Positions 3,306-63,620 of a stretch of DNA of 64,000 bases are shown piece by piece. Source of the DNA: Candidatus Edwardsbacteria bacterium RifOxyA12_full_54_48 (GTDB lineage: Bacteria; Edwardsbacteria; AC1; EtOH8). Position 1 is the first letter of the stretch, and each line of letters opens with the position of its first letter. Location: positions 617,744 through 681,743 of the forward strand of contig MFFN01000004.1 in the NCBI GenBank assembly GCA_001777915.1, read 5' to 3'. The notes under the pieces were generated by a model. It had not been told where the DNA came from, searched no databases, and saw nothing but the letters and a program-made list of their open reading frames with translations. Position numbers and translations under genes: made by a program.

Positions 3306-4121
3306 ATGAAAAAGATCGTCTCGATTTTAACCGCGGCCATAATGCTGATGGCCCTCCAGCCGGCCCGGGCCGAATTCAAGCCGTCCCAGGCCAGGATCAC
3401 CTTCATCAAGGGAAAGGTGGAGGTGCAGCGCCAGGGCAGCCAGACACCGGTCCCGGCCATGATGAAGATGACGGTATATCCCGGGGACATGATCTCCACC
3501 GATGACGGGTCCGAGGCCGAATTGAAGCTGTCGGACGGCAGCATCCTCAAGCTGAAGGACCAGGGACGGCTGGAGATCGAGAGAATGGAGAGGCAGAAGA
3601 AGCCCCTGACCACCATAAATTCCTTCCGGCTGGCAGCCGGCAAGATCCTGGGCTCCATCCGCAAGCTGTCCTCCCAGGAATCAAAGTTCACGGTGACCAC
3701 ACCGACGGCGGTGGCCGGCATCCGGGGGACGGTGTTCGGGGTGTTCGTGGAGGGGGACTCCACCGAGCTGAACGTGCTGAAGGGTGAGGTGGCCATCCAA
3801 GGCGACGCCGGGGGCGAGGTGCTGGTGAAGGACAAGATGATGCTCACGGTGGCCAAGGGGGACTCGGCCCACAACCCGGTGGTGATGACGGCGGCCAAGC
3901 TGGCGTTCATGACCATGTGGGCCGGAGCGGCCCTCAAGATAGGGTCGATGGGCAGCGCGGCGGCCACGGCCTGGTACGCCACCACGCCGGCCATCATCGG
4001 AGGTGCGGCGGCGGTGGTGGCCACCTCGGCGGTGGTGATCATCGCCAGCCAGAACGACGAGACCCCGGCCCCGGAGCCGGGCGCCCAGACCATCCCCGCC
4101 CCGCCGGGCTGGCCGCAATAA
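3306..4121 (+). CDS. FecR-like domain protein with signal peptide and Ala/Gly-rich C-terminal tail
   Basis: N-terminal signal peptide (MKKIVSILTAAIMLMALQPARA). The 'ITFIKGKVEVQRQG...DGSILKLKDQGRLEI...TTPTAVAGIRGTVFGV' stretch looks like a FecR/anti-sigma sensor fold. The C-terminus is a low-complexity Ala-rich run ending PAPPGWPQ. Confidence 0.45.
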   Translation: MKKIVSILTAAIMLMALQPARAEFKPSQARITFIKGKVEVQRQGSQTPVPAMMKMTVYPGDMISTDDGSEAELKLSDGSILKLKDQGRLEIERMERQKKPLTTINSFRLAAGKILGSIRKLSSQESKFTVTTPTAVAGIRGTVFGVFVEGDSTELNVLKGEVAIQGDAGGEVLVKDKMMLTVAKGDSAHNPVVMTAAKLAFMTMWAGAALKIGSMGSAAATAWYATTPAIIGGAAAVVATSAVVIIASQNDETPAPEPGAQTIPAPPGWPQ

Positions 4122-5044: not shown

Positions 5045-5851
5045 ATGAAAATAATATTGCCCCCGGCATTTTTCATAGCCCTTCTGGCAGGGGTTTTAAC
5101 GGCGGCTTTTCCGGGGTGCGCCCCCACCGTGTCCATAAAATACGACATCCACCGCAACCTGCCGATCATAGCGGACAACAGCCGCCCCGGGAAAACCTTT
5201 CAGGCCGGGGTGTTCCACGATTTCAGCAGCCGGGACACGGTCGAGATAGACTACTTCTACACCAGTCAGGTCAATCAGACCTTTTCGGCCTGGAACCAGT
5301 CTAACAGCCTATTGTACCTGTCCTATTCGCCCGTCGGGTCTTTTTCGGTCACAGGGATGATGGACGATGTGGGACCCGCCGCCGAACTGGTCTTCCGGCC
5401 AAAGATGGACGATCCCTGTCTGGCCCTGAGCGCCGCGGGATGGAAGAGTGATAAAGCTCTGTACTTCCGGGGCACGGCCGCGGGATCGCACCGCCCCTTC
5501 AGAAAGGATACTTCTGAAGTTGATGACGGCTTAAGCGGCCTCGGATTCTTCGGAAACCTGAGCTGGGCCCAGTATCCGGTCAGCATAGAATTCGACCAGA
5601 CCTATTACGATACTTTGGGAACCGAGTATTCCTGGCGGCTGGCCGGCGAGGAGAAAGGTTCGGCCCTCATTGCCGGGGCCGGCCTGGAGGCGGACCTGGG
5701 CTGGATCAAGGCCCAGCTGGGGATATCCCATTCATTCGCCATGAAGGAGCGGGGGGTGCGGGTGGACCTGGGCAGCCAGCCGGCCTACCTGACGGATGTC
5801 CGTCCGGCTCCGGTGACAAGGTTTCTGGCCGGGGTGATAGTGGGATTTTGA
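5045..5851 (+). CDS. Hypothetical secreted/outer-membrane protein
   Basis: Signal peptide with a lipobox-like 'FPGCAPT'. Aromatic-rich alternating pattern. No recognisable catalytic motif. Confidence 0.35.
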   Translation: MKIILPPAFFIALLAGVLTAAFPGCAPTVSIKYDIHRNLPIIADNSRPGKTFQAGVFHDFSSRDTVEIDYFYTSQVNQTFSAWNQSNSLLYLSYSPVGSFSVTGMMDDVGPAAELVFRPKMDDPCLALSAAGWKSDKALYFRGTAAGSHRPFRKDTSEVDDGLSGLGFFGNLSWAQYPVSIEFDQTYYDTLGTEYSWRLAGEEKGSALIAGAGLEADLGWIKAQLGISHSFAMKERGVRVDLGSQPAYLTDVRPAPVTRFLAGVIVGF

Positions 5852-5868
5852 AATATTTGCCAATAGGA

Positions 5869-5900
5869 TTATGTCGTAAACCGGGGCGATCCGATATCGC
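5869..5900 (+). terminator. Rho-independent terminator (ccggggcgat-N5-atcgccccgg + T-rich tail)
   Basis: 10-bp perfect inverted repeat followed by tcttatttat. Confidence 0.45.
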
Positions 5901-6067
5901 CCCGGTCTTATTTATCCTTGATTTTAAAGGGGGTAAAGAGTTATAATAAATGTTCAAATCAACATGGATTCCCGATTCCTCGGGAATGACAATCGACATT
6001 TTTATATATGATCCGCGAAAATCCGTGGCCAATTAATTTAAGCAACAATAATTGCGAGGGAATTCAA

Positions 6068-8569: not shown

Positions 8570-8960
8570 ACCGGCCACAGAGATTTTTTATATTGTAGGG
8601 GCGAAAGGTCTTTCGCCCGGACCTCATTACCAGGCAATACAGTCATTCCCGTGCCGACGGGAATCCATGGGACCAGCCCCTTTTTAACCACCAAGACACC
8701 AAGGCACAGAGATTTTTGTCACCCTGAGTTTTCCTTCTGTCTGGCAGGATGAGTGCCTTCGCCGTAGCTGCGGCACTCGAGGTAGCCAATTATAAAAGCG
8801 AAGGCGAAATGGGTGACGATAACGCCATTTCAACCACAGAGGGCACAAAGAAAACATTATCGTAGGGCGGATCGCGATCCGCCCAGGTTCTCCGCCTGCC
8901 AAGGCAGGTCATTCCGGTGCAGACGGGAATCCAGGGCCAACATTTTTATAATTTCAATAA
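8570..8960. repeat. Intergenic tract with three or more copies of the dispersed mosaic repeat family, minus orientation relative to the 57.6-59 kb copies
   Basis: Hairpins 'gtcattcccgtgccgacgggaatcca' and 'gtcattccggtgcagacgggaatcca'. 'ttaaccaccaagacaccaaggcacagagattttt' is the reverse complement of 'aaagtctttgtgccttagtgtcttggtggttaa' at 57.99 kb. Also a strong hairpin gggcgaaag-gt-ctttcgccc. Confidence 0.7.
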
Positions 8961-8975
8961 TCAGATAGAGCGAAG

Positions 8976-9944
8976 ATGCGATTTCCCAAGGGCAGGTCAA
9001 GCCTCCAGAACGCCAAACTTGAATTCGTCCACCTGGACAACATTTTGGCCGACAATAAAAAAGAGCGGGCCAGCAAGATCTCCGGATACCTGGAGATCAT
9101 CTATCCCGACATGGTCCAGCTGCTGTATCTCAAGAAGGGCGAGCCGGTGAACGCCGGGCATTTCTCCCGCACCGAACGCAAGCAGATCTCCATCTCCGAG
9201 GTGATAGATAAGGCCAAAAAATCCACCACCGGCACGGTCTCCATCTACGAGACGCCGGAGGAGCTGGTGGACATGATGCTGGCCGTCTTCAGCGTCAAGC
9301 CGGTTTTCAAGAACCTGGACCTGTCCAATGTGGAACCGGAAAAGTTGTTCGAGAAGCTGACCTCGGTCAAGTTCGACGGCTTTATGGAGATCCGGCGGGG
9401 GGTGGATATCTCCTACGTCCGATTCAAGGAGGGGGCGCCGGTCTCCGGCTATTTCACCTGGAAGGTGGAGGGCATTACCCCCGACCTGCTGAAGGCGGCC
9501 CTCAAGGCTGCGGCCACCGCCCCCGGGGCGGTGATCGTGGACGCCTATGACAAACTGCCGGTGCTGGCCGAGCATGCCAGCCCCGCCCAGATAGAGCTGT
9601 TCGTCAAGGCCATGAACAAGCTGATGGCCGAAATGCGCAACATCGCCGGCCCCACCCTGGTCAGCAAGACCATCGCCTCCTCGAAGGAAGCGGCCTCGGT
9701 GCACTATCCCTTCCTCAAGGACTTCGATTCCGGAGACGAGATCAAGGGCGAGGGCAAGATCGTGACCACCTCCGAGGAGCTGGGCAAGGGATTTGCCGAA
9801 TGGATGGATAATTTCGTCGACTCCTTCCGGATAGTGCTGGGCAAGCGCCTGGACGGGATAGTGCAGAACGCCCTGAAGGATTTCCGCTTCGCCCTCAAGG
9901 CCTCCAGCTTCGGACGGTACTCCAAGCTCAAGGATCTGCTCTAA
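8976..9944 (+). CDS. Hypothetical protein with two DUF4388-like repeats
   Basis: Two repeats of a 'G.L(E/M)I...(P)D..QLL...K.G.PV.(A)G(H/Y)F' pattern (GYLEIIYPDMVQLLYLKKGEPVNAGHF and DGFMEIRRGVDISYVRFKEGAPVSGYF) resembling DUF4388. No catalytic motif. Confidence 0.3.
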   Translation: MRFPKGRSSLQNAKLEFVHLDNILADNKKERASKISGYLEIIYPDMVQLLYLKKGEPVNAGHFSRTERKQISISEVIDKAKKSTTGTVSIYETPEELVDMMLAVFSVKPVFKNLDLSNVEPEKLFEKLTSVKFDGFMEIRRGVDISYVRFKEGAPVSGYFTWKVEGITPDLLKAALKAAATAPGAVIVDAYDKLPVLAEHASPAQIELFVKAMNKLMAEMRNIAGPTLVSKTIASSKEAASVHYPFLKDFDSGDEIKGEGKIVTTSEELGKGFAEWMDNFVDSFRIVLGKRLDGIVQNALKDFRFALKASSFGRYSKLKDLL

Positions 9945-10643: not shown

Positions 10644-11255
10644 ATGTTTCCCAATTGGCTGAAGACCGGATTTGTCAACCTGTTCAATCCGGTGATAAAT
10701 TTCTTCATCTGGACCAGGGTCAAGCCCAACTGGCTGACCACCGCCGGATTTCTGTTCGGCCTGGGCTCCGGCCTGCTGTTCGCCACCGGCCATTTCTTCT
10801 GGGGCGGCCTGGTGGCCCTGCTGTCGGCCATCTGCGACGCCATCGACGGCTCGCTGGCCCGCCGCTCGGGCCGCAGCACCAAGTTCGGCATGTTCTACGA
10901 CTCGGTGCTGGACCGCTACTCGGAGCTGGCCATGTTCATCGGGCTGTCCTATTACTATGCCGGCAGCGAGATGTGGCGGCTGGTCATCCTGACCGACCTG
11001 GCGCTGGCCGGCTCGTTGATGGTCAGCTACGCCCGGGCCAGGGCCGAGGGGCTGGGCGAGGACTGCAAGGTGGGCATCATGGAGCGGCCGGAACGGATAG
11101 CGGTGATCATCACCGCCTCGGTGTTCACCGGGATCTTCGACCAGCACTGGATATTCGAGATCGCCCTGTGGGTGCTGGCGGTATTCACCAACGTCACCGC
11201 GCTGCAGAGGATCCTGCATATCCGCCAGAAGACCAAGGGGCAGGGGATTCCCTGA
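10644..11255 (+). CDS. CDP-alcohol phosphatidyltransferase family protein, likely a phosphatidylinositol-phosphate / inositol-phosphotransferase class
   Basis: The '[30 protein letters not shown]' stretch matches the CDP-OH phosphotransferase D(x)2DG(x)2AR...G(x)3D(x)3D motif. Multiple TM helices. Immediately upstream of inositol-1-phosphate synthase. Confidence 0.75.
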
Positions 11256-11314
11256 ATAAGAGACAAGAAAACACCATCAGAAAAATAAAAATTCAGTTTT
11301 TAGGAAGGGACCAC

Positions 11315-12448
11315 ATGGCAAAGAAGATCATCAAAAAGACCGTCCAGCCGGCCGCCAAAAGTTCCGGCCAGCGCAAAGTCCGGGTGGCCATCATCGGGGT
11401 GGGCAACTGCGCCTCCTCCTTCGTCCAGGGCGTTCATTATTACCGCAACGCCAAGCCGGGCGACAAGGTCCCCGGCCTGATGCACGTCAACCTGGGCGGC
11501 TATCACATCTCGGACATCGAGTTCTCGGCCGCCATCGACATCGACAAGAACAAGGTGGGCAAGGACCTGGCCACCGCCATCTACACCAAGCCCAACAACA
11601 CCTTCAAGTTCTGCCAGGTGCCCAAGAGCGGGATCACCGTCCAGCGCGGCATGCTGCACGACGGTCTGGGCAAGTATCTGTCCCAGATCATCCAGAAGGC
11701 CCCGGGCTCCACGGTGGACATCGTCAAGCTGCTGCAGGACACCAAGACCGACGTGGTGGTCAGCTACCTGCCGGTGGGCTCGGAGATGGCCACCAAATGG
11801 TATGTGGAGCAGATACTGGAGGCCAAGTGCGCCTTTGTCAACTGCATTCCGGTGTTCATCGCCCGCGAGCAGTACTGGTCCAACCGCTTCAAGAAGGCCG
11901 GGGTGCCCTGCATCGGAGACGACATCAAGTCGCAGGTGGGGGCCACCATCACCCACCGGGTGCTGACCCGCCTGTTCATGGACCGGGGGGTCAAACTGCA
12001 GAAGACCTACCAGCTGAACTTCGGCGGCAACACCGACTTTCTGAACATGCTGGAGCGGGAGCGGCTGGAGTCCAAGAAGATCTCCAAGACCAACGCCGTC
12101 ACCTCCATGCTGGACTACAAGATGGATCCCGACGACATCCATGTCGGCCCGTCGGATTACGTGCCCTGGCTGCTGGACCGGAAATTCTGCCACATCAAGA
12201 TGGAGGGCCAGACCTTCGGCGACGTGCCCCTGAACCTGGACATGAAGCTGGAAGTATGGGATTCCCCCAATTCGGCCGGGGTGGTGATCGATGCGGTGCG
12301 CTGCGCCAAGCTGGCCCTGGACCACAAGCTCTCCGGGACCATGCTGGAGCCCTCCAGCTACTTCATGAAATCGCCCATGGTCCAGGTGCCGGACGACCAG
12401 GCCAAGAGGAACGTGGAAGAGTTCATCAAGAAACTGGGGCGGAAATAA
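11315..12448 (+). CDS. ino1: myo-Inositol-1-phosphate synthase (MIPS)
   Basis: '[23 protein letters not shown]...' is a Rossmann NAD-binding start. Motifs such as 'SYLPVGSE' and 'NGSPQNTFVPG-like' of MIPS are present, at ~377 aa length. The annotated long ORF 10655..12448 is an artefactual fusion; the true start is ATG 11315. Confidence 0.8.
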
Positions 12449-12463
12449 ACTTGCTTTGAACGA

Positions 12464-12495
12464 GGGTTACTACGAGTGTGTGCTCGTAGTAACCC
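12464..12495. other. Perfect 13-bp inverted repeat (gggttactacgag-tgtgtg-ctcgtagtaaccc) at the junction between ino1 and the AT-rich island
   Basis: Read directly from the sequence. It sits 16 bp after the ino1 stop. There is no T-run, so it is not a classical intrinsic terminator. Confidence 0.6.
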
Positions 12496-12520
12496 TAACA
12501 ATGAGAGTGAGGGATCTGTA

Positions 12521-12787
12521 ATGGAAATTAAAATCGGCGCAGATGAGCTTATTCTTTGGCTAAGGAAAACCAATAACGCCGTAGGCAGAAACAATAAAGA
12601 TTTAGGCAAAGAAATACGACAACAAATTGAAAGCCTTGGCGGTATTTTAATCAACGAAGATGTTGATGTACATTGGTCCAATGAAGGTCATAATATTGGA
12701 GATACGAATTTACCGAAAACAGCAGCACAGTACACAATAGATACAAGTAAATTGTGCAAACTATATGAATGGCTAACCACCTTATAA
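12521..12787 (+). CDS. Hypothetical small protein (88 aa) in the AT-rich island
   Basis: ORF with GAGGGA RBS 7 nt upstream of ATG 12521. Low GC. No recognisable motif. Confidence 0.3.
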   Translation: MEIKIGADELILWLRKTNNAVGRNNKDLGKEIRQQIESLGGILINEDVDVHWSNEGHNIGDTNLPKTAAQYTIDTSKLCKLYEWLTTL

Positions 12788-12884
12788 CGATTAAGTAATT
12801 TATTTGGCAATCCAATGTATCCAATAGTCGAAAAAATGCTCGTAAAAAATAAAGAGGTGCTGTTTAATAAAAAAAGGAAGTATC

Positions 12885-13739
12885 ATGAATACAAAAACCA
12901 TCTTTTTATGCTTCTCATTTTTTACCTATTCGTTACTTTTTGCACAAAGTAATATGGATATATTGGGACCAAAACCCAAACCAATAGAAAATGATACTTC
13001 TACCGGGCCACATTATGATAGTGATAAGCAGAGGCCATCACAAAAGAATAAAAGTTTAACAATTGTTACTCCCAAGTTGTATTGTAATTCAGAAATAATT
13101 GAAAAGGAAAAAATAAAACAGATAATAAATATTGTAAAAAAAGACATATATCAAGTTTATCCAGAATTAAATAAAAAATTAGCTGGTAAAAGCGATCTTG
13201 AAAAAGAAGCTTACTTAGAAACAGAGGATGGAAAAAATTATGTTACAGATTTAAAAGAACGAAGATCTGATATTATTAATTCTTCATTTCTATTTAAATT
13301 AGAATCTTCACTCCCCGATTATGACCCCAGTATTAATGCTTTTGAAATATCTATCAAAGATTATCTATCAATTGATGATAGTTATACAAGTATTCAAAGC
13401 AGCAAAAGCAACAAAATATTCTATACAAACACAATAAATGCTATTTGGTGTAACGGGCTGCCTATAAAAATAAAATCGTTTCGTGGGGTATACTACTCCG
13501 TATTACGGATTAATCCTGGCTCTAAAGCAACAGCACTTATGTTGGAAAGAAACAAACATAACATTCATATTTATTTTGGGTTTAGATTAAGCGGGAAACT
13601 TAAGAAACTGCCGTATACTTCACTTCATAATGATGATATAGTGTGGGAAAGCTATGCTATGGCTAAAGATATGGTTATATTGTTGGTAGATTCAAAAACG
13701 GACAAAGTAGTATTTTCCAGAATGTATCATACAAAATAA
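12885..13739 (+). CDS. Hypothetical secreted protein (284 aa) in the AT-rich island
   Basis: Signal peptide MNTKTIFLCFSFFTYSLLFAQ. Asn/Lys/Ser-rich. ~30% GC versus ~63% in flanking genes. Confidence 0.45.
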   Translation: MNTKTIFLCFSFFTYSLLFAQSNMDILGPKPKPIENDTSTGPHYDSDKQRPSQKNKSLTIVTPKLYCNSEIIEKEKIKQIINIVKKDIYQVYPELNKKLAGKSDLEKEAYLETEDGKNYVTDLKERRSDIINSSFLFKLESSLPDYDPSINAFEISIKDYLSIDDSYTSIQSSKSNKIFYTNTINAIWCNGLPIKIKSFRGVYYSVLRINPGSKATALMLERNKHNIHIYFGFRLSGKLKKLPYTSLHNDDIVWESYAMAKDMVILLVDSKTDKVVFSRMYHTK

Positions 13740-13741
13740 GT

Positions 13742-14428
13742 ATGTCTATAAAAACAAACTGTTTGGAAGCAAGAAAAAGAAAGTCAATTCCGATTATTAG
13801 AAAAGGCCTTTTCATAAGCTTTGAGGGCATCGAGGGCTGCGGGAAAAGCACCCAGGCCAAACTATTGGAGAGCTGGCTCAAGGCCCAGGGCTTTAAGGTA
13901 GTACTGACCAGGGAACCCGGCGGCCCTTCCATTTCCGAGAAGATAAGAAAGATCCTGCTGGACAGCCGCAACCAGGGGATGTCCGACCTCACCGAGCTGC
14001 TGCTGCTGCAGGCCTCCCGGGTCCAGCACCTGGCCCAGGTGATAGTGCCGGCCCTGAAGGCCGGGAAGGTGGTGATCTGCGACCGTTTTGCCGACTCCTC
14101 CACCGCCTACCAGGGCTACGGCCGGGGCCTGGACCTGAAGATGGTGGGTGAGCTCAACGATTTTGCGGTGGACGGCCACTGGCCCCAGCTGACGCTGGTG
14201 CTGGACCTGCCGGTGGAGAAGGGTTTCTTAAGGGCCCAAGGCCGGCGCCGCAGCTTGGACCGGATGGAGACCCAGGCCGTAAAATTTCACAAAAGGGTCA
14301 GACAGGGTTTTAAGGCCATAGCCAAAGCAGATCCAGGGCGGGTCAAACTTTTGGATGGCAGCCAGCCGCCGGAGGTGATCCACGCCGCGGTGCGGCAGCT
14401 GGCGCTGAGCGCCATGAAAAAAAGATAA
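13742..14428 (+). CDS. tmk: Thymidylate kinase
   Basis: 'GLFISFEGIEGCGKSTQAKLL' P-loop, 'DRF' motif and 'SSTAYQG' lid. The first ~20 codons are AT-rich and unlike Tmk N-termini, so the true start is uncertain (possibly TTG 13763). Confidence 0.85.
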   Translation: MSIKTNCLEARKRKSIPIIRKGLFISFEGIEGCGKSTQAKLLESWLKAQGFKVVLTREPGGPSISEKIRKILLDSRNQGMSDLTELLLLQASRVQHLAQVIVPALKAGKVVICDRFADSSTAYQGYGRGLDLKMVGELNDFAVDGHWPQLTLVLDLPVEKGFLRAQGRRRSLDRMETQAVKFHKRVRQGFKAIAKADPGRVKLLDGSQPPEVIHAAVRQLALSAMKKR

Positions 14429-14487
14429 CGTAACTATTCAGCGTTGTGAAAAGACGAAGTGGTTTTTTAACCACCGATAACACACAG

Positions 14488-14883
14488 ATGAACACCGAGA
14501 AAGGTAAAAGGGTTGATCTTCTATTTGAAGATTTGACCTATAAGATCATTGGTGCGGCAATTGAAGTGCACAAAATCTTGGGCCCAGGATATTTGGAATC
14601 CGTTTATGAAGATGCTTTGTGTTACGAGTTGGAAGCTTTAGATATTCGTTTTCAGCGACAAGTGGATTTGGATGTCAAGTACAAGAACGTCGTTTTCAAG
14701 AGAAAATTCAGGGCTGATCTGTTGGTGGAAGAGAAAGTTCTGGTTGAAAACAAAGCTATAACAACTCTAACCGCCAGCGATGAAGCGCAGTTGTTCAATT
14801 ATTTAAAAACGACGGGACTGCGGGTAGGATTGCTCTTCAACTTTGGCAGTTCCAAGCTGCAAAAAATAAGGAGGATAGTGTGA
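14488..14883 (+). CDS. GxxExxY-family protein (PD-(D/E)XK-like small nuclease family)
   Basis: 'LTYKIIGAAIEVHKILGPGYLESVYEDAL' contains the eponymous G-x2-E-x2-Y motif. Length ~131 aa from the internal Met. Lies in a lower-GC mini-island. Confidence 0.6.
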   Translation: MNTEKGKRVDLLFEDLTYKIIGAAIEVHKILGPGYLESVYEDALCYELEALDIRFQRQVDLDVKYKNVVFKRKFRADLLVEEKVLVENKAITTLTASDEAQLFNYLKTTGLRVGLLFNFGSSKLQKIRRIV

Positions 14884-14958
14884 TCTATCGGTGTCAATCG
14901 GTGCGCCATCCGTGGTCAAATGGCTAGATAGTTACAAGATAGTGAAAGAATATTTATT

Positions 14959-16566: not shown

Positions 16567-16852
16567 CTTTCGAAAATAGTTATTGGTCTTTAGTTAATAG
16601 GGGTTTACCTTTGCCACCAAGCATGCACTGAGCGATGCCGAAATGACACTAAGATATTTAATCTGTTTATTGTCATTCCGAGATGATTGTCAACCCAACA
16701 GATTTGGTGATCCTTCGGCTTGGCGGGATCAGAAAATTTTTTCGAACGACCACCCCTAAATCCCCTCCTTGATCAAGGAGGGGACAGGGGAGGTCAAAAC
16801 GACTCGGAACATGGTTATACCGATTATAAAAACAAATATTATTTGAGGACTT

Positions 16853-19363: not shown

Positions 19364-20128
19364 ATGATGAGCAACGAAATAAAAATATCGGCCCAGGACC
19401 TCAAGGCCTTCTACGGGCCGGAGCAGCTGCTGATGTCCCTCAACATGGACATCCAGGCCAACCAGATACTGGGCATCATCGGGCCTTCCGGCTCAGGCAA
19501 GACCACCTTCCTGCGCAGCCTGAACCGGCTCAACGACCTGGTGCACGGCTTCCGGATCGAGGGCCGCATCCTGCTGGACGGGCAGGACATCTATCACCCC
19601 AACTCCGACGTGGTGGCCCTGCGCAAACGGGTGGGAATGCTGTTCGCCCTGCCGGTGCCCCTGCCCAAGAGCATCTACGAGAATGTGGTCTACGGACCCA
19701 GGCTGTCGGGCGCAGGAGACCGGAAAAAACTCGATCAGCTGGTGGAGGCCAGCCTGAAGTCGGCCTTCATCTGGGACGAGGTCAAGGACCGTCTGAATTC
19801 ACCGGCCATGCGCCTGTCCGGAGGACAGCAGCAGCGGCTGTGCCTGGCCAGGATCCTGGCCCAGGAGCCGGAGGTGATCCTGCTGGACGAACCTTGCTCC
19901 GGGCTGGACCCCATCTCCACCGCCAAGATCGAGGAGGCCCTGACTATCCTCAAGCAGAAGTACACCGTCATCCTGGTCACCAACAACACCAAGCAGGCGG
20001 CCCGGGTGGCCGACCAGACCGCCTTCTTCCTGATGGGCTCGCTTATCGAATACGGACCGACCAAAGATCTGTTCACCGTGCCAAATGACAAAAGGACCAG
20101 CGATTACATCACCGGACGTTTCGGGTAA
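19364..20128 (+). CDS. pstB: Phosphate ABC transporter ATP-binding protein, copy 1
   Basis: Walker A GPSGSGKTT, signature LSGGQQQRLCLAR, Walker B ILLDEP. Ends 'DYITGRFG', which is typical of PstB. Confidence 0.9.
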   Translation: MMSNEIKISAQDLKAFYGPEQLLMSLNMDIQANQILGIIGPSGSGKTTFLRSLNRLNDLVHGFRIEGRILLDGQDIYHPNSDVVALRKRVGMLFALPVPLPKSIYENVVYGPRLSGAGDRKKLDQLVEASLKSAFIWDEVKDRLNSPAMRLSGGQQQRLCLARILAQEPEVILLDEPCSGLDPISTAKIEEALTILKQKYTVILVTNNTKQAARVADQTAFFLMGSLIEYGPTKDLFTVPNDKRTSDYITGRFG

Positions 20129-20250
20129 AGAGGTACCTGCCCACTAAACACACGAAAGGTTATTAACCGGTCAAAACAAGATATAAGAACAATCCATTCG
20201 GCATGATACAGATCGAAAGATCCACCTATTTCCGCTTTTAACGAAATCAA

Positions 20251-21009: not shown

Positions 21010-21545
21010 TTTTGGAACACGGATCGAGTCAGGTAGGTTCTCTCACCAAGCCACCAAGGATTTATCAATTTACTTAGGCACACTTTGAGAACCCAGGCAT
21101 TTGCGTCATTCTGGGCTTGCTTTGAAGCTATCCACGTCGAAGAATCTGTCGATGGATCACTGAAGGTATATCACACAAAGCCACTAAGACACGACGTTAT
21201 TACTTAATAGAGCATTGTCACCACTTCGAAAATTTTATTTTTGCCAACCTCAGTGCAGGCTCTGGGGTCTCTTCCCGCTTGGCAGGTTGAAGGGGTGGCA
21301 AAAGGCTATGCTCACACATTCAGCCAGTCAGGCAAGGTGGCCTTCTCTGTGTGACAGTTTTATTTTTAAGCGTTCAAATTTTAATTTATCACACAAAGCC
21401 GCCGAGCCACGAAGCCCACTGGTTTGCCAGAGATGGATTCGGTTGATGGCTACAAGTTAATTTATAGATTAATTCAGCTTGGTGTCTTGGTGGCAAATAA
21501 CATAGAAGGCTGATAATATCAAAAATCCTTAAAAAAAACGGGGAG
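21010..21545. repeat. Repeat-rich intergenic tract between pstB2 and phoU, with mosaic-repeat modules in both orientations
   Basis: 'caccaagccaccaagg' (21.04 kb), 'cacacaaagccactaagacacgacgttattacttaatag' (21.17 kb), 'cacacaaagccgccgagccacgaag' (21.39 kb) and the forward 'cttggtgtcttggtggcaaat' (21.48 kb). All share motifs with the 8.6, 56.9 and 58 kb loci. Confidence 0.65.
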
Positions 21546-22225: not shown

Positions 22226-22705
22226 ATGGCCAAGACCATCATAATTGACGGCTACAATCTGGCTTTCGCCTCCGGCAAGATAAGGCCGGTTCTGCTCAAG
22301 GAAAAGAAAGAAGGGCGGGCCTTGTTGCTGGACATTTTGGCTGGGTATAAGAAGGCATTGGGGTATGACATTACCGTCATCTTCGACGGGGCGGAAGGGA
22401 AGGAGCACAAGGGAGACAGGGTCAGGGGCATAAGGGTTTTTTACTCCAAGCCGCCCCAGAACGCCGACCGGGTGATCAAGGACAAAGCCTCAATTATGAA
22501 GAAGACCAAAACGTTGACCGTGGTCACCTCCGACCGGGAGCTGGCCCATCATGTCAAGGGGCGGCAGGTGGAGGTGATCGGCTCCGGGGCATTCTTGGAA
22601 AAGATGGAGCGGGAGATGACCCTGCGGGGCGCGGATAAGGAGAGGCCCGGGAAGATAGATGTGAAAGAGTGGATGGAATATTTTGGGATAAAAGGGAAGG
22701 AATGA
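22226..22705 (+). CDS. NYN-domain (YacP/Rae1-like) predicted ribonuclease
   Basis: 'TIIIDGYNLAF...VIFDGAEG...VVTSDRELAHHV' matches the YacP-like NYN fold (acidic residues after beta strands). Confidence 0.55.
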   Translation: MAKTIIIDGYNLAFASGKIRPVLLKEKKEGRALLLDILAGYKKALGYDITVIFDGAEGKEHKGDRVRGIRVFYSKPPQNADRVIKDKASIMKKTKTLTVVTSDRELAHHVKGRQVEVIGSGAFLEKMEREMTLRGADKERPGKIDVKEWMEYFGIKGKE

Positions 22706-22786
22706 AGATAAATCGATCGACCGGTCGGCGCATCTTTTCAATACCGGGTCCTACTGAATTTTAAGACACATTGCCAAGGGGGATCA

Positions 22787-23332
22787 ATGCTGGCTCCGTT
22801 ATTCATCCTTAAAAACACCAAAGGCAAGGGCTGCGGGCTTTTCGCCAAACGGGACATTCCCAAGGGAACGGTGGTGTTCTATGAGTGTTCGCAATGCACC
22901 GTCATCCCCAAAGCCAAATTCGACAAGCTGACCAAGACCCAAAAGGAAAAGCTGTTGTTCCACGCCTACACCCGCCAGGACGGCTCGGTGGTCAATCCCT
23001 GCGGCGATTCCATTTACATGAACCATTCCTGTGATCCCAATATCCTGGATACCGGAAAGGGTTTTGATGTGGTGGTCCGGGACATCAAAAAAGGCCAGGA
23101 GGCCACCTGCGATTACCGGGTCTTTTATGATAAGGATTGGGGCTTTGAATGTCATTGTGGCAGCAAAAACTGCTGCGGGACATTCACCTGTCGCCGGCCG
23201 CTGGCCTCCGGGGTCAAGGCCTTTTGGGAAAAAATGACGGCCCCGGCGTTGAAACGGATATCGAAAGTACCCCAGCCGCTCAAAGAGCAATTTCTGAAGG
23301 AGTATCCGGCCAAGGCCCGGTATTTCAAATAG
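22787..23332 (+). CDS. Bacterial SET-domain protein (putative lysine methyltransferase)
   Basis: 'GKGCGLFAKRDIPKGTVV', 'NHSCDPN' (SET pseudoknot motif), 'ATCDY', and the Cys-rich post-SET 'ECHCGSKNCCG'. Confidence 0.7.
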   Translation: MLAPLFILKNTKGKGCGLFAKRDIPKGTVVFYECSQCTVIPKAKFDKLTKTQKEKLLFHAYTRQDGSVVNPCGDSIYMNHSCDPNILDTGKGFDVVVRDIKKGQEATCDYRVFYDKDWGFECHCGSKNCCGTFTCRRPLASGVKAFWEKMTAPALKRISKVPQPLKEQFLKEYPAKARYFK

Positions 23333-29859: not shown

Positions 29860-30314
29860 GAATAGACCAAAGCTGGTATGTCAAGCCGCCGGGTATAGCC
29901 GAGCATACCTCCTGTGGCGGGGTGGTGGTCAGAAAGGTTGGAGATCGGATCCTGGTGGCGCTGGTCACCGAGCCGGGATTTAAGGAATACATCCTTCCCA
30001 AGGGCCATGTTGAATCCGGGGAGAATCTGGAGCAGGCCGCCCGGCGGGAGATAGCCGAAGAAGCGGGCTTCACGGAGTTAAAGCTGGTTAAAAGCCTGGG
30101 ATCGATCGGACGCTTGGATTTCCGGAAACGCTCCTGGGGCACCATGCACTACTTTCTATTCACCACCAGTCAGGAGGAGACCAGCCCCAGCGATCCGGAA
30201 CACCAGTACATCGTGAAATGGTTTCCGATAGATGCCCTGCCCGAAATGTTCTGGCCGGAGCAGGGAGCGCTGATAGAAGATAATACCGATATGATCAGAA
30301 AGATTTTTGAATAA
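29856..30314 (+). CDS. NUDIX hydrolase
   Basis: Nudix box '[23 protein letters not shown]'. Confidence 0.7.
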
Positions 30315-36735: not shown

Positions 36736-37032
36736 ATGTCTATGATGGGTTACATGTACATACTTAAGTGCAATGATGGCACCTATTATACCGGCAGTAC
36801 AGTGAACCTCAAAAAAAGACTGAACGAACACCAAAGTGGTGTGGGGGCGAACTACACAAAAAAACGGTTGCCGGTTGATTTGGTTTATTATGAAGAATAT
36901 CCCAGAATAGATCAGGCATTCTATCGGGAAAAGCAGATACAAAACTGGAGTCGAAAAAAGAAAAAATCATTAATAATGGGCGAGTTTTCAGAGTTACCAA
37001 AGCTGGCCAAGAAAATTTTTAGAAAAAGCTAA
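36736..37032 (+). CDS. GIY-YIG nuclease family protein (UPF0213-like), in a low-GC mini-island
   Basis: 'GYMYILKCNDGTYYTGSTVNLKKRLNEHQSG' contains the GIY...YIG/YTG motif. 98 aa. Low GC relative to the backbone. Confidence 0.7.
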   Translation: MSMMGYMYILKCNDGTYYTGSTVNLKKRLNEHQSGVGANYTKKRLPVDLVYYEEYPRIDQAFYREKQIQNWSRKKKKSLIMGEFSELPKLAKKIFRKS

Positions 37033-56151: not shown

Positions 56152-56787
56152 ATGGCATCTTCAGGCAATCAAGCGCAAAAGTACAAATGCCCCTGCGGCA
56201 AGAGTTATTACACCGTCCACAGCTACTACGATCAGGCCGGCTTGTTTGACGAGCATTGGGAGATGAACTGCTGCCGATGCAAACAGCGCTACCAGCTCAG
56301 TTCGCTCCTCAAGGAGAGCGGCCGGGGCCTCAACGAGGCCTATCTCTGGGCCCCAATAAACATCTTCAGCGAGCTGGCCATCGTGGAGGACCAGTTGCAC
56401 CGGGCCCAGGGCGATATGCTGGCCCTGGCCCGGGAGCTGTATCTGGATCGCTGGCTTGGGCACTTCTCCGGGGTTAAGGCCAGAAAAGATATCTGGCGGC
56501 GCCTGACCGACGGCGGGAAACGGGAGCCCAGCTACCGGCTGTTCGTTCGTTCGGCGCCCCGGGACAATCTGGAGGACTATCTGCAGAGATACTTCCACTA
56601 TTTCAACGTGGACCATATCCTGGAGAAGCTGGGGGTGCGGGACATCCGGCTGGATGAGATGAAAGGCCGGATCGCCGAACTGCAGACCGGCCGGGAAAGG
56701 GCCCAGGGCCTGCTGAGGATGGAAGGTTTTGCTGGACGGAGCGAATACCGGTGGGGATCATCAATAAAAACCGATAGGCGTGTATAG
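56152..56787 (+). CDS. Hypothetical protein with N-terminal Cys4 zinc-ribbon-like motif (212 aa)
   Basis: 'KCPCGKSYY…NCCRCKQRY' looks like a C-x-C…C-x2-C ribbon. The rest is helical/charged. Start taken at Met 56152. Confidence 0.3.
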   Translation: MASSGNQAQKYKCPCGKSYYTVHSYYDQAGLFDEHWEMNCCRCKQRYQLSSLLKESGRGLNEAYLWAPINIFSELAIVEDQLHRAQGDMLALARELYLDRWLGHFSGVKARKDIWRRLTDGGKREPSYRLFVRSAPRDNLEDYLQRYFHYFNVDHILEKLGVRDIRLDEMKGRIAELQTGRERAQGLLRMEGFAGRSEYRWGSSIKTDRRV

Positions 56788-56789
56788 TA

Positions 56790-57100
56790 GGGTCGGGATT
56801 CAGCCCCGACCCCGGCTATCATGTCATCCCGGTTCCGCAGCAAGTGCGGGATAAATTCCGACAGGGATGACGGGATTTAACTACCAAGACACTAAGACGC
56901 CAAGAATTTTTACTTAATACCGGACTAAGGTGTCATTCCTGCCCATCCCTCACTCCCTCACCGCTGCGGGGAGAGCCTGCACTGAGGACGGCAGTTATTT
57001 TTGCCGACCGAAGTGGAGGCCGATAGGCAGTGAGGGGTCAGGATAGGCGGGGAACCGGGGGCCGTCCCACATCTCTGACGCGGATATAACCACAGGAGAC
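56790..57100. repeat. Repeat tract with 'gtcatcccg…cgggat' hairpins, a 'ccaagacactaagacgccaag…ttacttaata' module, and a GC-rich imperfect palindrome
   Basis: Shares 'cactaagac…ttacttaata' with 21.17 kb and 20.14 kb. 'ggtgtcattcctgccc' is a half-hairpin. Confidence 0.55.
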
Positions 57101-57106
57101 AGGGAA

Positions 57107-57376
57107 ATGTATAGCATCGAGGTAAGCGAAAGGGAAAAAATGTTGGGCTACGCCCTGAGCCCCGTTCCGAATCCCGCCGGTAAACTGCCGGGGGAGCCGG
57201 AGCAGGTCCTGGCGGTGGCCTATACACTGGACGAAGAGAACCTGATCGTCAAAAAGCTGTATCCCATGGGGGGTTGCCGGTATTGGCATTTGAAAAAGGC
57301 CAGCGATGACTGGAGAACGGTGAGCAATGTGGAGCCCGACCCGGGAAAGGCCATCGAGCGGGCCAGGCTAGGATGA
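57107..57376 (+). CDS. Hypothetical protein (89 aa)
   Basis: ORF with a GGAG-like RBS (acaggagacagggaaATG). No motif recognised. Confidence 0.3.
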   Translation: MYSIEVSEREKMLGYALSPVPNPAGKLPGEPEQVLAVAYTLDEENLIVKKLYPMGGCRYWHLKKASDDWRTVSNVEPDPGKAIERARLG

Positions 57377-57599
57377 CCGCCTCCTCACTCCATCCAATTT
57401 GCCTGCCGGCACCAGTTGCTTGAGACCATCGGACAGGGGATGATTTTTTTATGCCGGGATGAAGGCCTTGGCCGGGCCTGCGGCCAGATCAAAGGCCGGA
57501 AGCGCAAGGCTAAAAAATCTCCCGGGGGTTCAGCGGCAAAACAGTTTTCATTTGACAAGCCATATCCAAAGCGGTATATTAATACTTGTAAAAGTATTT

Positions 57600-58060
57600 T
57601 TAAACCGCTTTTTTAACGCCTCGGCTCAGGGGAAACCGATGTTCAACCAACCCAGTATTAAGTTCAAAGATTAAAGAATAAAAGCCTTTGTGTATTTTGT
57701 GCACCTTTCGACTTGGCTCCGGGAATTCTTTGTGGTTAAAAGGTACCTGAGATTGCTTCGGCTGTGAATCTTTGGTGCCATCCCCGCAATGACACGGAAG
57801 GCAGGCAGAAAGCCGGTAAATAATGAAAGCCTTTGTGTCTTTGTGCTTAAAAGATTCTAAGGCTTGGCGGGTAGGCTGCCGGGCTCAGAATGACGAAAGC
57901 AATGACATAGGGCCGGAAATATCAGTGAAAATCCGTATTCCATTAAGCCTGGATTCCCGACTTCTCGGGAATGACACCTGGTGCAGGTTAAAAGAGTAAA
58001 AGTCTTTGTGCCTTAGTGTCTTGGTGGTTAATTCCGGTTTAAAATTAAAAATAAAGGAGC
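57600..58060. repeat. Non-coding tract containing direct-repeat unit X1 (~57730-57845) and several mosaic-repeat modules (hairpin 57951-57976)
   Basis: 'ttgtggttaaaaggtacctgagattgcttcggctgtgaatctttggtgccatccccgcaatgacacggaaggcaggcagaaagccgg…aagcctttgtg' is ~80% identical to 58769-58890. Hairpin 'ggattcccgacttctcgggaatgaca' is followed by 'cctggtgcaggttaaaag…ctttgtgccttagtgtcttggtggttaa'. Confidence 0.7.
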
Positions 58061-58469: not shown

Positions 58470-59056
58470 AAGTTCATAAAGCTTAAAGTTTAAAGAATAG
58501 AAGCCTCTGCGTCTCTGCGGTGAAATGACCCTGGATTCCTGCCTTCGCCGGAATGACACGCAGGACAGGTTAAAAGTGAAAAAGTCTTTGTGTCTTTTAT
58601 GCGCTTTGTGGCAAAACCAGTTTAATGTTCAAAGCTTGTCACACTGAGAAGGCATTCGTGCCCTGCAAGTTGAATGTGTGAAGGGGAATTCGGGAAACAT
58701 AATATTGTCGCCCGTTCAACTTGGCAAGAGTAAAGAATTCTCAGGGTGACAACAACCACTCTGCGTTTCGTGGCTAAAAGACACCTGAGATTGCTTCGCT
58801 TGTGAATCTTCGGCGCCATGCTCGCAATGACAAGAAAGGCAGGTACAAAGCCGGAAAAGAATAAAAGCCTTTGTACGCTTTGTGGTTAAAAGGGACCCTG
58901 GATTCCAGCTGGAGTTTATGCTGAATGCAATGAAGTGCTGGAATGACAAACGCATCAGCGTAAAGCTATAAAGTCTCTCTGTGACCCAGTGTCTCTGTGG
59001 CAAAACCTCAGCCCAGAAGTTAAATAAACCGCTCCGGAAAGGGGCGGCCTTTTTTG
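58470..59056. repeat. Non-coding tract with direct-repeat unit X2 (~58769-58890), three hairpin modules and a terminator
   Basis: Hairpins 'ggattcctgccttcgccggaatgaca' and 'ggattccagctgg…gctggaatgaca'. 'ggttaaaagtgaaaaagtctttgtgtcttttatgcgctttgtggcaaaacc' and 'taaagtctctctgtgacccagtgtctctgtggcaaaacc'. Terminator ccgctcc-ggaaa-ggggcgg + ttttttg at 59029-59056. Confidence 0.7.
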
Positions 59057-61211: not shown

Positions 61212-61560
61212 GGGCCGATAGAACGCAGATCAGACGGATTTAGACGGATTCACACGGATACAAACAGGGGTATTCTCGCACTGGTCTATTAGGCAACCTA
61301 TGCCCAGTCATCGCGAGACGGCTTTTTATTTCAGCCGAAGCGATCTCAGCTGGGACCTCTGCAAAACTAACCGCCGAAGCACGGAAATTTTAAAAACACG
61401 GAATGATATCCATCAGATATTCATTCCTTTGGTGATTCCCTTCCGAAAATCAGTGTTTCCGTGCCTGCACGCTGTAGCGCGGAGTTTACACCGATGCAAG
61501 AGGTGGCGCGCAAGCTTGGTAAAAGGTACGTTTAGCCCCTAAATGAAATAATCACTGGAG
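61212..61560 (+). other. Structured 350-nt leader/intergenic region upstream of the HD-domain gene (candidate cis-regulatory RNA)
   Basis: Tandem 'acggat' iterations (cagacggatttagacggattcacacggat). Nested inverted repeats gcacggaaa…tttccgtgc enclosing ggaatgatatc…gatattcattcc. RBS GGAGGAG before the ATG at 61567. Confidence 0.35.
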
Positions 61561-62689: not shown

Positions 62690-63532
62690 ATGTTTATTAT
62701 GAAAAGATATTTGCTTTTATTTATACTGATTCTATCAGTCTCGCCCATTGTGAATGCCCTGGATTTGAAAGGCACATTTTGGACGGATGAAAGCAATGCA
62801 TATTTTTTCTTTCAAGATACAACAGTGCTTTTTGAGCATGGGGGGCGTGCTGATAAATTCAAATATTTAATAAAAAATGATAGCCTATACCTTTTTAAAA
62901 ACTACTGGATTGATAAGGACAGTATTAAGCATATTCAATCGTATGGTTTGATATGTGGAATAAAATCAAAGGATTCCTTGTCATTACGGCCATACTTGCC
63001 CGTAGATAATGAATGGGAAAAAGATATCATTGATCCAGTATTAACTGATACAATGAAAACATCAAGGTTTTACAACGTAGAAAAATATTATGATCCATCC
63101 TTGCTTGTCTTTGATAAATTATATTTCATGTTGAATGAATATGACTATAAAGTGGAAATCATAATAGATAAGAACAGAAACTATTATTACCATGGAAAAG
63201 GCGATATTAAAAATAAGGGGTATTACCAAGGCATAATTAGCGATTCGCTTTTTAAAGTACTGGGGAATTTGCTTGAGAAAAGTTGTTTAAGACTAATTAC
63301 ATTAGAGCCTGTTTGTTATGATATTGACACCACAGGAAAAGTATCAAATATTATATTTGTTAAAGATGGTCCCGATTATACATTAAATTTATATGTAGAT
63401 AAGGAAATAATCAATCTTCAAGGCAATAGTTTGCCATACGTGGCTAAAAATCTTTTTAATTTTCTTTCCAAGTCTAATCGTGATGTTAAATTGTTAAAAT
63501 CAAAGAGTGCAAAAAAAGCTTTTGGCCAATAA
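62690..63532 (+). CDS. Hypothetical secreted protein in an AT-rich island (280 aa)
   Basis: Signal peptide MKRYLLLFILILSVSPIVNA. Tyr/Asn/Lys-rich. ~30% GC. Confidence 0.4.
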   Translation: MFIMKRYLLLFILILSVSPIVNALDLKGTFWTDESNAYFFFQDTTVLFEHGGRADKFKYLIKNDSLYLFKNYWIDKDSIKHIQSYGLICGIKSKDSLSLRPYLPVDNEWEKDIIDPVLTDTMKTSRFYNVEKYYDPSLLVFDKLYFMLNEYDYKVEIIIDKNRNYYYHGKGDIKNKGYYQGIISDSLFKVLGNLLEKSCLRLITLEPVCYDIDTTGKVSNIIFVKDGPDYTLNLYVDKEIINLQGNSLPYVAKNLFNFLSKSNRDVKLLKSKSAKKAFGQ

Positions 63533-63620
63533 AACTATCTACATATTTATAACTTTTAGTTTTCGTGTGTTTTGTGGGAAGATTTCTCTGCGTAGAAGAT
63601 AATATTAAGGAGGCTCTATC

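Follow-up and report, generated by a model that had tools for sequence, protein, structure and literature searches.

The 64-kb stretch analysed here (the window; positions 617,744 to 681,743 of contig MFFN01000004.1 of Candidatus Edwardsbacteria) carries short repeat modules between its genes: CGTC-tagged hairpins, GTAG-tagged hairpins and arms, the last being runs of tandem 8–10-nt units. Eleven intergenic tracts contain such modules, for a total of 2929 bp or 4.6% of the window; in the repeat-bearing regions the genes lie nearly all on the + strand, and within one tract the modules all have the same orientation. A preliminary description had reported a modular, mosaic family at at least seven intergenic sites in both orientations, occupying about 5% of the window. 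Every site that it listed carries a module, further sites lie at 14429–14935, 61222–61530 and 63560–63581, and the mixed, nested tracts of hairpins and arms bear out the mosaic character. The repeats are real and far above chance: the octamer GGAATGAC occurs eight times against 2.75 expected, each time between genes, the CTTNGTG tandem module gives 11 matches against 1.1 (shuffle and Markov controls), and hairpins with GTC, an AT-initiated 8-bp stem and a 4-nt loop number five against 0.43 in Markov-1 simulations. Loci fetched for comparison are labelled L001 and so on. The window belongs to a 958-kb metagenome contig (ENA ERZ27254848 k141_402935) and is 100% identical to L001 and L004; strains of about 99% nucleotide identity are represented by the NCBI metagenome-assembled genome (MAG) GCA_002424885.1 and a JGI oil-sands tailings metagenome. 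Because the tracts are reproduced at 99–100% identity in the independent assemblies L002, L003 and L005 (ENA, NCBI and JGI sources), they are not assembly artefacts.

Known RNA and repeat types were sought in parallel. Rfam gave no match at gathering thresholds over the whole window and nothing meaningful at E ≤ 1 for the two richest tracts, so that the Rfam search suggested earlier returned no family for the units. No transfer RNA or transfer-messenger RNA was found in the window, and Tandem Repeats Finder (TRF) with repeat scans detected no CRISPR-like array of identical, regularly spaced direct repeats, the units being heterogeneous and their spacing irregular. Literature queries with the hairpin and with CACAGAG-type repeat strings returned primer noise only.

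Judged by its sequence, the GGATTCC-N-GGAATGAC hairpin is a CGTC-tagged repetitive extragenic palindromic element (REP) of type CGTC-1, because its tag, AT stem, 4-nt loop and CCA tail agree with the published definition: a CGTC or TGTC tag (CCTC being allowed), a stem of 8–9 bp that runs 'almost invariably' from A-T pairs, a loop of 4–5 nt and a CCA tail, with 8-bp stems and 4-nt loops in the CGTC-1 family, which corresponds to the neisserial dRS3 (Di Nocera et al. 2013, PMC3733652). Read on the GTC strand, the short copies consist of an unpaired NGTC tag, an 8-bp stem ATTCC(C/G)GN, a 4-nt loop and an unpaired CCA tail. The window has six full hairpins of the form GGATTCC...GGAATGAC (5965–5991, 8641–8667, 8907–8933, 57949–57976, 58531–58558 and 58898–58948), five with an 8-bp stem and a 4-nt loop and the sixth with a 35-nt loop. 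All six keep the CCA tail; the tag is TGTC in four and AGTC and GGTC in one each, with GTC invariant and an exact CGTC in none. Three window copies match the dRS3 consensus, ATTCCCN8GGGAAT (PMC1797815), exactly and two are near matches. Taken together, nine copies from the window, from L174 (a sister species) and from L071 (a deltaproteobacterial MAG of no close kinship) pair at 97% of their stem positions; two stem pairs show compensatory changes, and the innermost pair alternates between C-G, A-T and T-A. The preliminary description could assign the family to no named repeat class; its hairpin half nonetheless matches a family already described (PMC3733652), GTAG REPs adjoin it, and the arrays are organised in the manner of enterobacterial BIMEs and neisserial intergenic mosaic elements (NIMEs; PMC1797815).

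Around this core, variant hairpins keep the GTC-AT frame with other stems (ATTGC, ATCCC, ATTCT and ATCGC), in the forms GATTGC...GCAATGAC, GTCATCCC...GGGATGAC, GATTCT...AGAATGAC and GTCATCGCGAG...GCGATC. Some are long-looped and weakly folding, and the predicted folding of the long GATTGC 'hairpins' is no stronger than that of shuffled sequence. The three copies that had been claimed at 8.6–8.95 kb resolve into two short hairpins and one long variant, accompanied by three arms and two GTAG REPs. Like CGTC-1/dRS3 elsewhere, the window hairpins combine the tag, stem, loop and tail, lie between genes, occur with GTAG REPs and have no adjacent transposase that we could see. They differ in their variant stems, in the long loops of these sister variants and of one full copy, and in arrangement: head-to-head dimers predominate among CGTC REPs, with clustered copies in Neisseria and Wolbachia instead (PMC3733652), whereas no such dimer was found among the window copies, which stand singly and co-oriented within a tract. 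They differ also in host, Candidatus Edwardsbacteria lying outside the five phyla reported. What is new, by sequence comparison, is a known hairpin superfamily in a phylum not previously listed for CGTC REPs. The CGTC/dRS3 class would thereby extend to a further candidate phylum, with the same hairpin recurring in very distant bacteria; among the fetched loci, which span many phyla and 1.8 Mb, the ATTCC-type hairpin is confined to the window lineage and L071. To our knowledge no enzyme is known to move CGTC REPs, the whole class included.

Beside the CGTC hairpins stand three GTAG-tagged REPs with 8-bp, G+C-rich stems (Table 1), a count that is weak by itself (three against about 1.1 expected). 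By analogy, they are probably moved by a RAYT-type tyrosine transposase (RAYTs being IS200-like) encoded elsewhere in the genome; none was found among about 20 window open reading frames (ORFs) scanned, a scan that was not exhaustive.

The arms lead to a different kind of element. Between tmk and ctpA lies an intact 507-bp unit bounded by imperfect 13-bp outer inverted repeats, GTAACTATTCAGC / GCTAGATAGTTAC, with two mismatches. Inside them are octamer arms at 14467–14504 and 14884–14923, the right the reverse complement of the left, and a PDDEXK_3 ORF at 14488–14883 whose start codon the left arm overlaps. The unit is flanked by AAGATAA (14422–14428) and AAGATAG (14936–14942), 7 bp with one mismatch. 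Its ORF belongs to the GxxExxY/PDDEXK_3 family (TIGR04256 at 2.9e-43, PF13366 at 1e-40), the proteins of which keep an invariant catalytic D...ExK triad (D77, E87 and K89 in the window protein) and the GxxExxY motif. No PDB entry matched the window protein in sequence, its AlphaFold model is of low confidence (pLDDT 62), and Foldseek gave no match below E = 0.7. PDDEXK_3 has been annotated as 'function unknown, multiple transfers' (PMC3424549).

With the window protein as query, 80 metagenomic loci were fetched, 67 of them with both flanks. In 48 of the 67, inverted arms scoring above all shuffled controls flank the GxxExxY gene. An arm consists of two to four tandem units of 8–10 nt with the outer end (A/G/T)CCAC; its 7-mer varies from locus to locus (CACAGAG, CACGGAG, CACAAAG, CACGGAT, CACCGAT, CGCAGAG, CGCAAAG), and the two arms of one locus match. 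The ORF enclosed by the 72 arm pairs is the GxxExxY gene or none, the inner distance then being 29–150 bp; four other enclosed ORFs, classified by reading the sequence and not by a family search, resemble host genes or an ISL3-type transposase between neighbouring elements. The Delta-1 symbiont of Olavius algarvensis has, immediately after a GxxExxY gene, an ORF-less arm unit of 130 bp in 3.1 (L177, 1914–2311) or 4.1 (L179, 1914–2441) tandem copies, the number varying with the assembly; this array is a point at which many short-read contigs stop. Homologues of 70–80% protein identity occur in Bacteroidota, Ignavibacteriales, Scalindua and a Desulfobacterota symbiont, mostly on contigs of less than 3 kb, and no relative was found in the viral contigs of IMG/VR. 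In a sister species from sample Ga0180009, whose core genes are 85–92% identical to those of the window species, the tmk–ctpA site is empty and copies of 93–95% nucleotide identity lie at two other loci, at contig ends.

The solitary 8-nt modules of the window can be read in the same terms. They had been described as a heptad module; TRF gives a period of 8 nt, not 7, and they do not form a free-standing repeat class, their architecture being that of the terminal repeat of GxxExxY gene elements. The module TTAACCAC-CAAGA-CACCAAGG-CACAGAG has the outer end GTGGTTAA/GTGGCAAA on the other strand, and CACAAAG-type arms flank GxxExxY genes in L148 and L155. Because of this occurrence and the common architecture, the window modules would be arms of the GxxExxY element type, here mostly without the gene, an assignment that rests on shared architecture and not on demonstrated descent. 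A second conserved module, 'CACTAAGAC-N8-TTACTTAATA', had been proposed for three sites: it is common to the copies at 21.17 kb (halves 9 nt apart) and 56.88 kb (11 nt apart) and missing from the 20.14 kb copy, and its TTACTTAATA half is the T-rich inner flank of an arm. The A-rich prefix AAAGAATAAAAG before solitary arms was considered as a remnant of the GxxExxY C terminus (KRI) and rejected, as the family hidden Markov model (HMM) finds the intact gene only and the prefix is a periodic AAAG repeat in the sister species. We likewise rejected the idea that arms carry other cargo: a TehB-like methyltransferase gene in L088 (8473–9096) sits between the pstB genes, at the junction that holds an arm in the window, but itself lacks arms, and the remaining enclosed ORFs are those named above.

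How the arms might act is suggested by their mismatches. In paired arms, the 7-mer cores mismatch at 5.9% of positions and the 1–3-nt inter-unit spacers at 42.8% (Fisher p = 2e-26), and the mismatches are symmetric, with 46 G.U-compatible and 43 A.C on the sense strand and no wobble bias. Because cores match, inter-unit spacers diverge and the G.U and A.C classes are balanced, we infer that the arms work at the DNA level, as sites repeated at both ends of an element and bound by protein, and not as an RNA stem.

Relatives graded by distance were fetched around the pst–phoU and PAS_10–CheC regions, and their spacers were compared with those of the window. The tmk–ctpA spacer measures 530 bp in the window and 16, 14 and 14 bp in L086, L088 and L089, the difference being the 507-bp insertion 14429–14935. 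Between pstB1 and pstB2 there are 122 bp in the window, 480 bp in L086 (a different element), 103 bp in L089 (with a homologous CGCGAAA-type arm) and −4 bp in L006; between pstB2 and phoU, 544 bp as against 200 (L086), 137 (L088), 136 (L089) and 142 bp (L006). The PAS_10–CheC spacer is 678 bp in the window, 809 in L174, 293 in L175 and 152 in L176, and the spacer upstream of PAS_10 is 688 bp against 142, 28 and 82 bp in the same three. In sister species the corresponding spacers are short and free of modules; the tracts are therefore selfish repeats, nested and duplicated locally, that have accumulated in the window lineage, much as in BIME and NIME arrays. PAS_10–CheC synteny is kept in every relative examined, array-free ones included, and therefore the arrays grew around an ancestral gene. 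L086 contains two copies of a different non-coding element of about 450 bp (5530–6000 and 8600–9000, in the pstS–pstC and pstB1–pstB2 spacers) with GACCCGCCGGGGGCACAGGGCTTAACG and CCCTCTCC...GGAGAGGG hairpins; a related hairpin lies at 16750–16793 of the window.

The pstB2–phoU spacer also bears on a specific suggestion of the preliminary description, namely that the inverted pair at 21.04 and 21.48 kb resembles terminal inverted repeats and might point to MITE-like mobility (MITE, miniature inverted-repeat transposable element). Against L088 and L089, the two arms fall in separate extra segments on either side of the hairpin 21103–21146. Because this enclosed hairpin is present in sister species that lack both arms, the pair does not represent the two ends of one insertion; the 460-bp structure combines three nested arms of one orientation with a single opposed arm, and these lie in two separate insertions around an older hairpin. 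The broader suspicion of MITE-like mobility fares better, since orthologous sites in related genomes are empty or far shorter. Nesting recurs elsewhere: hairpins lie between two arm units at 16611–16662 and in L086, L097 and L102, and at five of eight arm–hairpin junctions the hairpin follows the outer end of the arm at a near-fixed distance, about 15–16 nt after GTGG, in the form GTGG-TTAAAAGGNACC-YGR-GATT(C/G)C. Two paralogous blocks, one of 108 nt at 84% identity and the other of 67 nt at 82%, recur on either side of the PAS_10 gene. A 45-nt imperfect palindrome, TCACACA...TGTGTGA, occurs at 21312–21354 and 58637–58681 (76% complementary), with a related copy in L174 (about 3320–3365).

Table 1 Repeat modules of the window and the intact GxxExxY element, in window coordinates
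Position	Strand	Feature	Remarks
5965..5991	-	CGTC-1 REP hairpin, TGTC tag, stem ATTCCCGA, loop 4, CCA tail; solitary	17 nt upstream of glyQS start; exact dRS3 match
8575..8589	+	Single CAC-type unit CCACAGAGATTTTTT	
8595..8618	+	GTAG REP hairpin, 8-bp stem, 4-nt loop	
8641..8667	+	CGTC-1 REP hairpin, AGTC tag, CCA tail	
8684..8717	+	Octamer arm, three units TTAACCAC CAAGA CACCAAGG CACAGAG ATTTTT	Outer end 8684; 91% complementary to 57998–58031
8718..8817	+	Long-loop hairpin variant GTCACCCTGAG...GGGTGAC	Read from sequence
8832..8855	+	Octamer arm, two units AACCACAGAGGGCACAAAGAAAAC	
8862..8884	+	GTAG REP hairpin	
8907..8933	+	CGTC-1 REP hairpin, GGTC tag, one stem mismatch, CCA tail	
14429..14935	+	Intact 507-bp GxxExxY element	Empty site in L086, L088, L089
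16611..16662	+	Octamer arm, hairpin nested between two units: CCACCAAG / CATGCACTGAGCGATGCCGAAATGA / CACTAAGA	Also in L086
16671..16696	+	Truncated CGTC-type hairpin TGTCATTCCGAG...	Complete in L086 as GTCATCCCGAG...GAGGGATGA
20139..20168	+	Degenerate octamer arm between two pstB genes	L089: CGCGAAA-type arm at same place; L006: genes overlap by 4 bp
21042..21078	+	Octamer arm CACCAAG x2 with T-rich inner flank	In 55-nt segment missing from L088/L089
21103..21146	+	Older CGTC-type hairpin GCGTCATTCTG...GAAGAATC	Conserved in L088 and L089
21168..21209	+	Octamer arm, inner flank TTATTACTTAATA	Flank described earlier as a second module
21385..21498	.	Mini-pair: arm 21385–21419 and inverted arm 21475–21498, 55 bp between, no ORF	Analogous ORF-less pairs in other genomes
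56787..56812	+	GTAG REP hairpin	Overlaps stop codon of upstream gene
56822..56872	+	Hairpin variant GTCATCCC...GGGATGAC	DNA fold -14.3 kcal/mol, z = -4.05
56876..56919	+	Octamer arm, three units, inner flank TTTTTACTTAATA	
57673..58031	-	Array upstream of PAS_10 gene, all one orientation	Arm 57673–57705, arm end 57728–57747, GATTGC hairpin 57748–57794, arm 57818–57853, GATTCT hairpin 57854–57894, CGTC-1 REP 57949–57976, arm 57991–58031
58492..59006	-	Array downstream of PAS_10 gene	Paralogous to upstream array; arm 58492–58530, CGTC-1 REP 58531–58558, arm 58573–58617, palindrome 58637–58681, arm end 58759–58785, GATTGC hairpin 58786–58832, arm 58856–58897, long-loop CGTC REP 58898–58948, arm 58968–59006
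61222..61530	.	Nest: 4-unit arm (10-nt period) 61222–61265, GTCATCGCGAG hairpin 61306–61345, arm 61367–61404	Continued by palindrome 61400–61427 and inverted arm remnants 61455–61529
63560..63581	-	Solitary arm TTTTCGTGTGTTTTGTGGGAAG	Upstream of ftsX-like gene

We put at about 0.7 the probability that the tracts are lineage-specific, non-coding selfish DNA accumulated in permissive intergenic spacers from CGTC REPs, GTAG REPs and arms. The CGTC-tagged hairpins would be mostly of the CGTC-1/dRS3 type, joined by the GTC-AT-frame variants; the GTAG-tagged hairpins would form the second component; and the arms, as two to four tandem 8–10-nt units (CACNNAG plus spacer) that end in (A/G)CCAC, would be the terminal inverted repeats of a widespread GxxExxY element of ~0.4–0.6 kb, with ORF-less derivatives consisting of arms alone. 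Tracts would have grown by insertion (shown by the empty sites), by nesting of hairpins in or beside arms (seen directly in the sequence) and by local duplication, either segmental or tandem (evident from the paralogous blocks and from copy-number polymorphism). One candidate for the mover of the arm elements would be the GxxExxY nuclease itself, and effects on neighbouring genes, for example through hairpins in the untranslated regions (UTRs) of the PAS_10 transcript, would be incidental and dispensable. Tracts of this kind account for broken contigs and for many of the spurious small ORFs of metagenome assemblies, and are best masked before searches for regulatory RNAs.

Several observations weigh against this account. 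No transposase was found among the roughly 20 ORFs scanned in the window, which is not an exhaustive set, the window itself covering 64 kb of a contig of at least 958 kb. The single orientation within a tract fits local duplication better than repeated independent insertion. The solitary arms use CACCAAG/CACAAAG units, whereas the intact element has CACCGAT units, and a six-frame search of the window with the family HMM found no GxxExxY coding remnant beside them, only the intact gene. The exact GxxExxY protein occurs at one locus only in the window species, and the putative target-site duplication is known from a single insertion and contains one mismatch. Lastly, folding prediction gives the RNA of the window element a panhandle in which the start codon is hidden (z = -3.67), which allows a possible role at the RNA level.

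A more far-reaching proposal, which we hold tentatively and think somewhat unlikely as a whole, is that the arms mark an undescribed, cross-phylum family of autonomous mobile elements of ~0.4–0.6 kb, in which the ~125-aa GxxExxY PD-(D/E)XK protein would bind the end 7-mers and drive its own transposition or homing, with ORF-less derivatives seeding the arrays that REP hairpins then colonise. No second pair of filled and empty insertion sites emerged among the 80 metagenomic loci, and look-ups of exact proteins for multiple genomic contexts returned a single context for each. No description of the link between arms and GxxExxY genes was found in the literature searched, where subscription journals are thinly covered, so a prior description is possible. 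The large GxxExxY/PDDEXK_3 family would gain a genomic context, as genes set between lineage-matched tandem-repeat ends that insert at new sites and leave ORF-less derivatives.

Close parallels for such an element are MITEs and their parent insertion sequences (for example Correia/NEMIS, Nezha and Chunjie). Common to both are an autonomous-looking parent with inverted ends and one ORF, an empty site, short ORF-less derivatives that consist of the paired ends, a multi-copy state, broken short-read contigs and a patchy distribution among relatives; the putative flanking 7-bp duplication would be a further likeness. The window type differs in that its sole ORF encodes a ~125-aa PD-(D/E)XK-type protein with no known transposase activity, its ends are tandem 8–10-nt units whose sequence varies between lineages, and many copies are solitary arms in direct arrays instead of inverted pairs. 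Intervening sequences of 23S rRNA offer a looser comparison: those of Leptospira reportedly carry a small 'S23p'/four-helix-bundle ORF, lie between inverted repeats able to pair into a long stem, and are tolerated inside transcription units. They resemble the window element as small single-ORF insertions between inverted repeats and differ in protein family and target, and the arm mismatches of the window speak against selection for an RNA stem.

An alternative is that the units are functional structured RNAs (UTR stabilisers or attenuators, RNase III sites or small RNA genes) kept for regulating the flanking genes. A sigma-70-like promoter (57552–57580, 11/12 matches) and an intrinsic terminator (59029–59056) bracket both arrays and the PAS_10 gene, and because of this the arrays would be UTRs of the PAS_10 transcript; the hairpin stems keep their pairing through compensatory changes, the predicted panhandle would hide the start codon of the element, and the literature suggests that many REPs are transcribed and act as RNA hairpins (PMC3733652). 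We nevertheless regard retention for regulation as improbable: relative to the genes, which all lie on the + strand, the modules point both ways, they are missing from orthologous spacers of sister species with the same genes in the same order, and Rfam recognises none of them, even at E ≤ 1 over the two richest tracts. The arm pairs also lack a bias of G.U over A.C, the 43% mismatch of their spacers would break a helix every 8 nt, and the long GATTGC forms fold like shuffled sequence.

Just as doubtful is the possibility that the arrays are recombination-promoting structures in the style of NIMEs, with hairpins serving as recombinase sites by which genes are swapped or captured between arrays. 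The hairpin is of the dRS3 type, a target for phage-recombinase integration in Neisseria (PMC1797815), paralogous arrays in direct orientation flank the single small PAS_10 gene, and array length differs between sister species. Yet the conserved PAS_10–CheC synteny, also where arrays are lacking, marks that gene as ancestral and not captured, and the non-exhaustive scan of about 20 window ORFs turned up no recombinase gene. As in BIMEs and NIMEs, the arrays are intergenic, alternate REP-type hairpins with other short repeats, vary in length among close relatives and contain nested small repeats. NIMEs, however, are regular dRS3-RS-dRS3 units of 50–150 bp with more than 100 RS families, whereas the window hairpins are spaced irregularly at 266–582 bp and interleaved with one class of repeat, the octamer arms. 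NIMEs being a lineage-defined family, the window arrays are an analogue only; by analogy of organisation they are BIME/NIME-like without being members of either lineage-defined family.

It is highly improbable that the arms are attC-like sites of an integron-like cassette system in which GxxExxY genes are one frequent cassette. Small single-gene units with imperfect inverted repeats do stand in tandem and in one orientation in L092, L093, L104 and L112, and adjacent arms form G-arm/C-arm palindromes (window 14447–14504), but the arm pairs enclose a GxxExxY ORF or nothing, apart from the four ORFs read as host-like or ISL3-type, no integrase and no R/L-box motif were seen, and the window insertion lies at a non-array site with outer inverted repeats and a putative flanking duplication of its own. 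Compositional coincidence or a metagenome assembly artefact, a thought invited by the ease with which short motifs recur at random in a genome of 57% G+C and loose arm regular expressions match coding sequence, is refuted by the controls, by the intergenic position of all copies and by the near-identical tracts of independent assemblies, and its probability is negligible.

Further insertions and unusual genes lie elsewhere in the window. Between the inositol-1-phosphate synthase gene and tmk is an island of low G+C (0.40; 12449–13819) with two ORFs (12476–12787 and 12885–13739) that have no Pfam or NCBIfam match; because it is missing from the 99%-identical L002/L003, it is a strain-variable insertion. 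Conversely, L002 has an extra low-G+C ORF of 196 aa between yacP and the SET-domain gene (11152–11742; window 22705–22787) and a DUF559 endonuclease-like gene after two CCCTTCCC...GGGAAGGG hairpins (19657–19875; window 30285–30314), both small strain-variable insertions because they are missing from the window. The yacP and SIR2-family genes, 21 kb apart in the window (22706–43918), are adjacent in L088, close in L006 and separated by an RHS-repeat gene in L089; the 22706–43918 segment was therefore inserted or rearranged in the window lineage. A stand-alone GIY-YIG nuclease gene of 98 aa (36736–37032), of a kind of small nuclease gene that tends to be multi-copy, occupies a 556-bp spacer with no octamer arms. 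Inside the repeat-rich spacer at 56.8–57.6 kb, a putative 89-aa ORF (57107–57376) with a third-position G+C of 0.72 has no family match. Lastly, a 280-aa ORF at 62690–63532, with a third-position G+C of 0.30 among genes near 0.8 and a sub-threshold match to DUF6438, is probably foreign.

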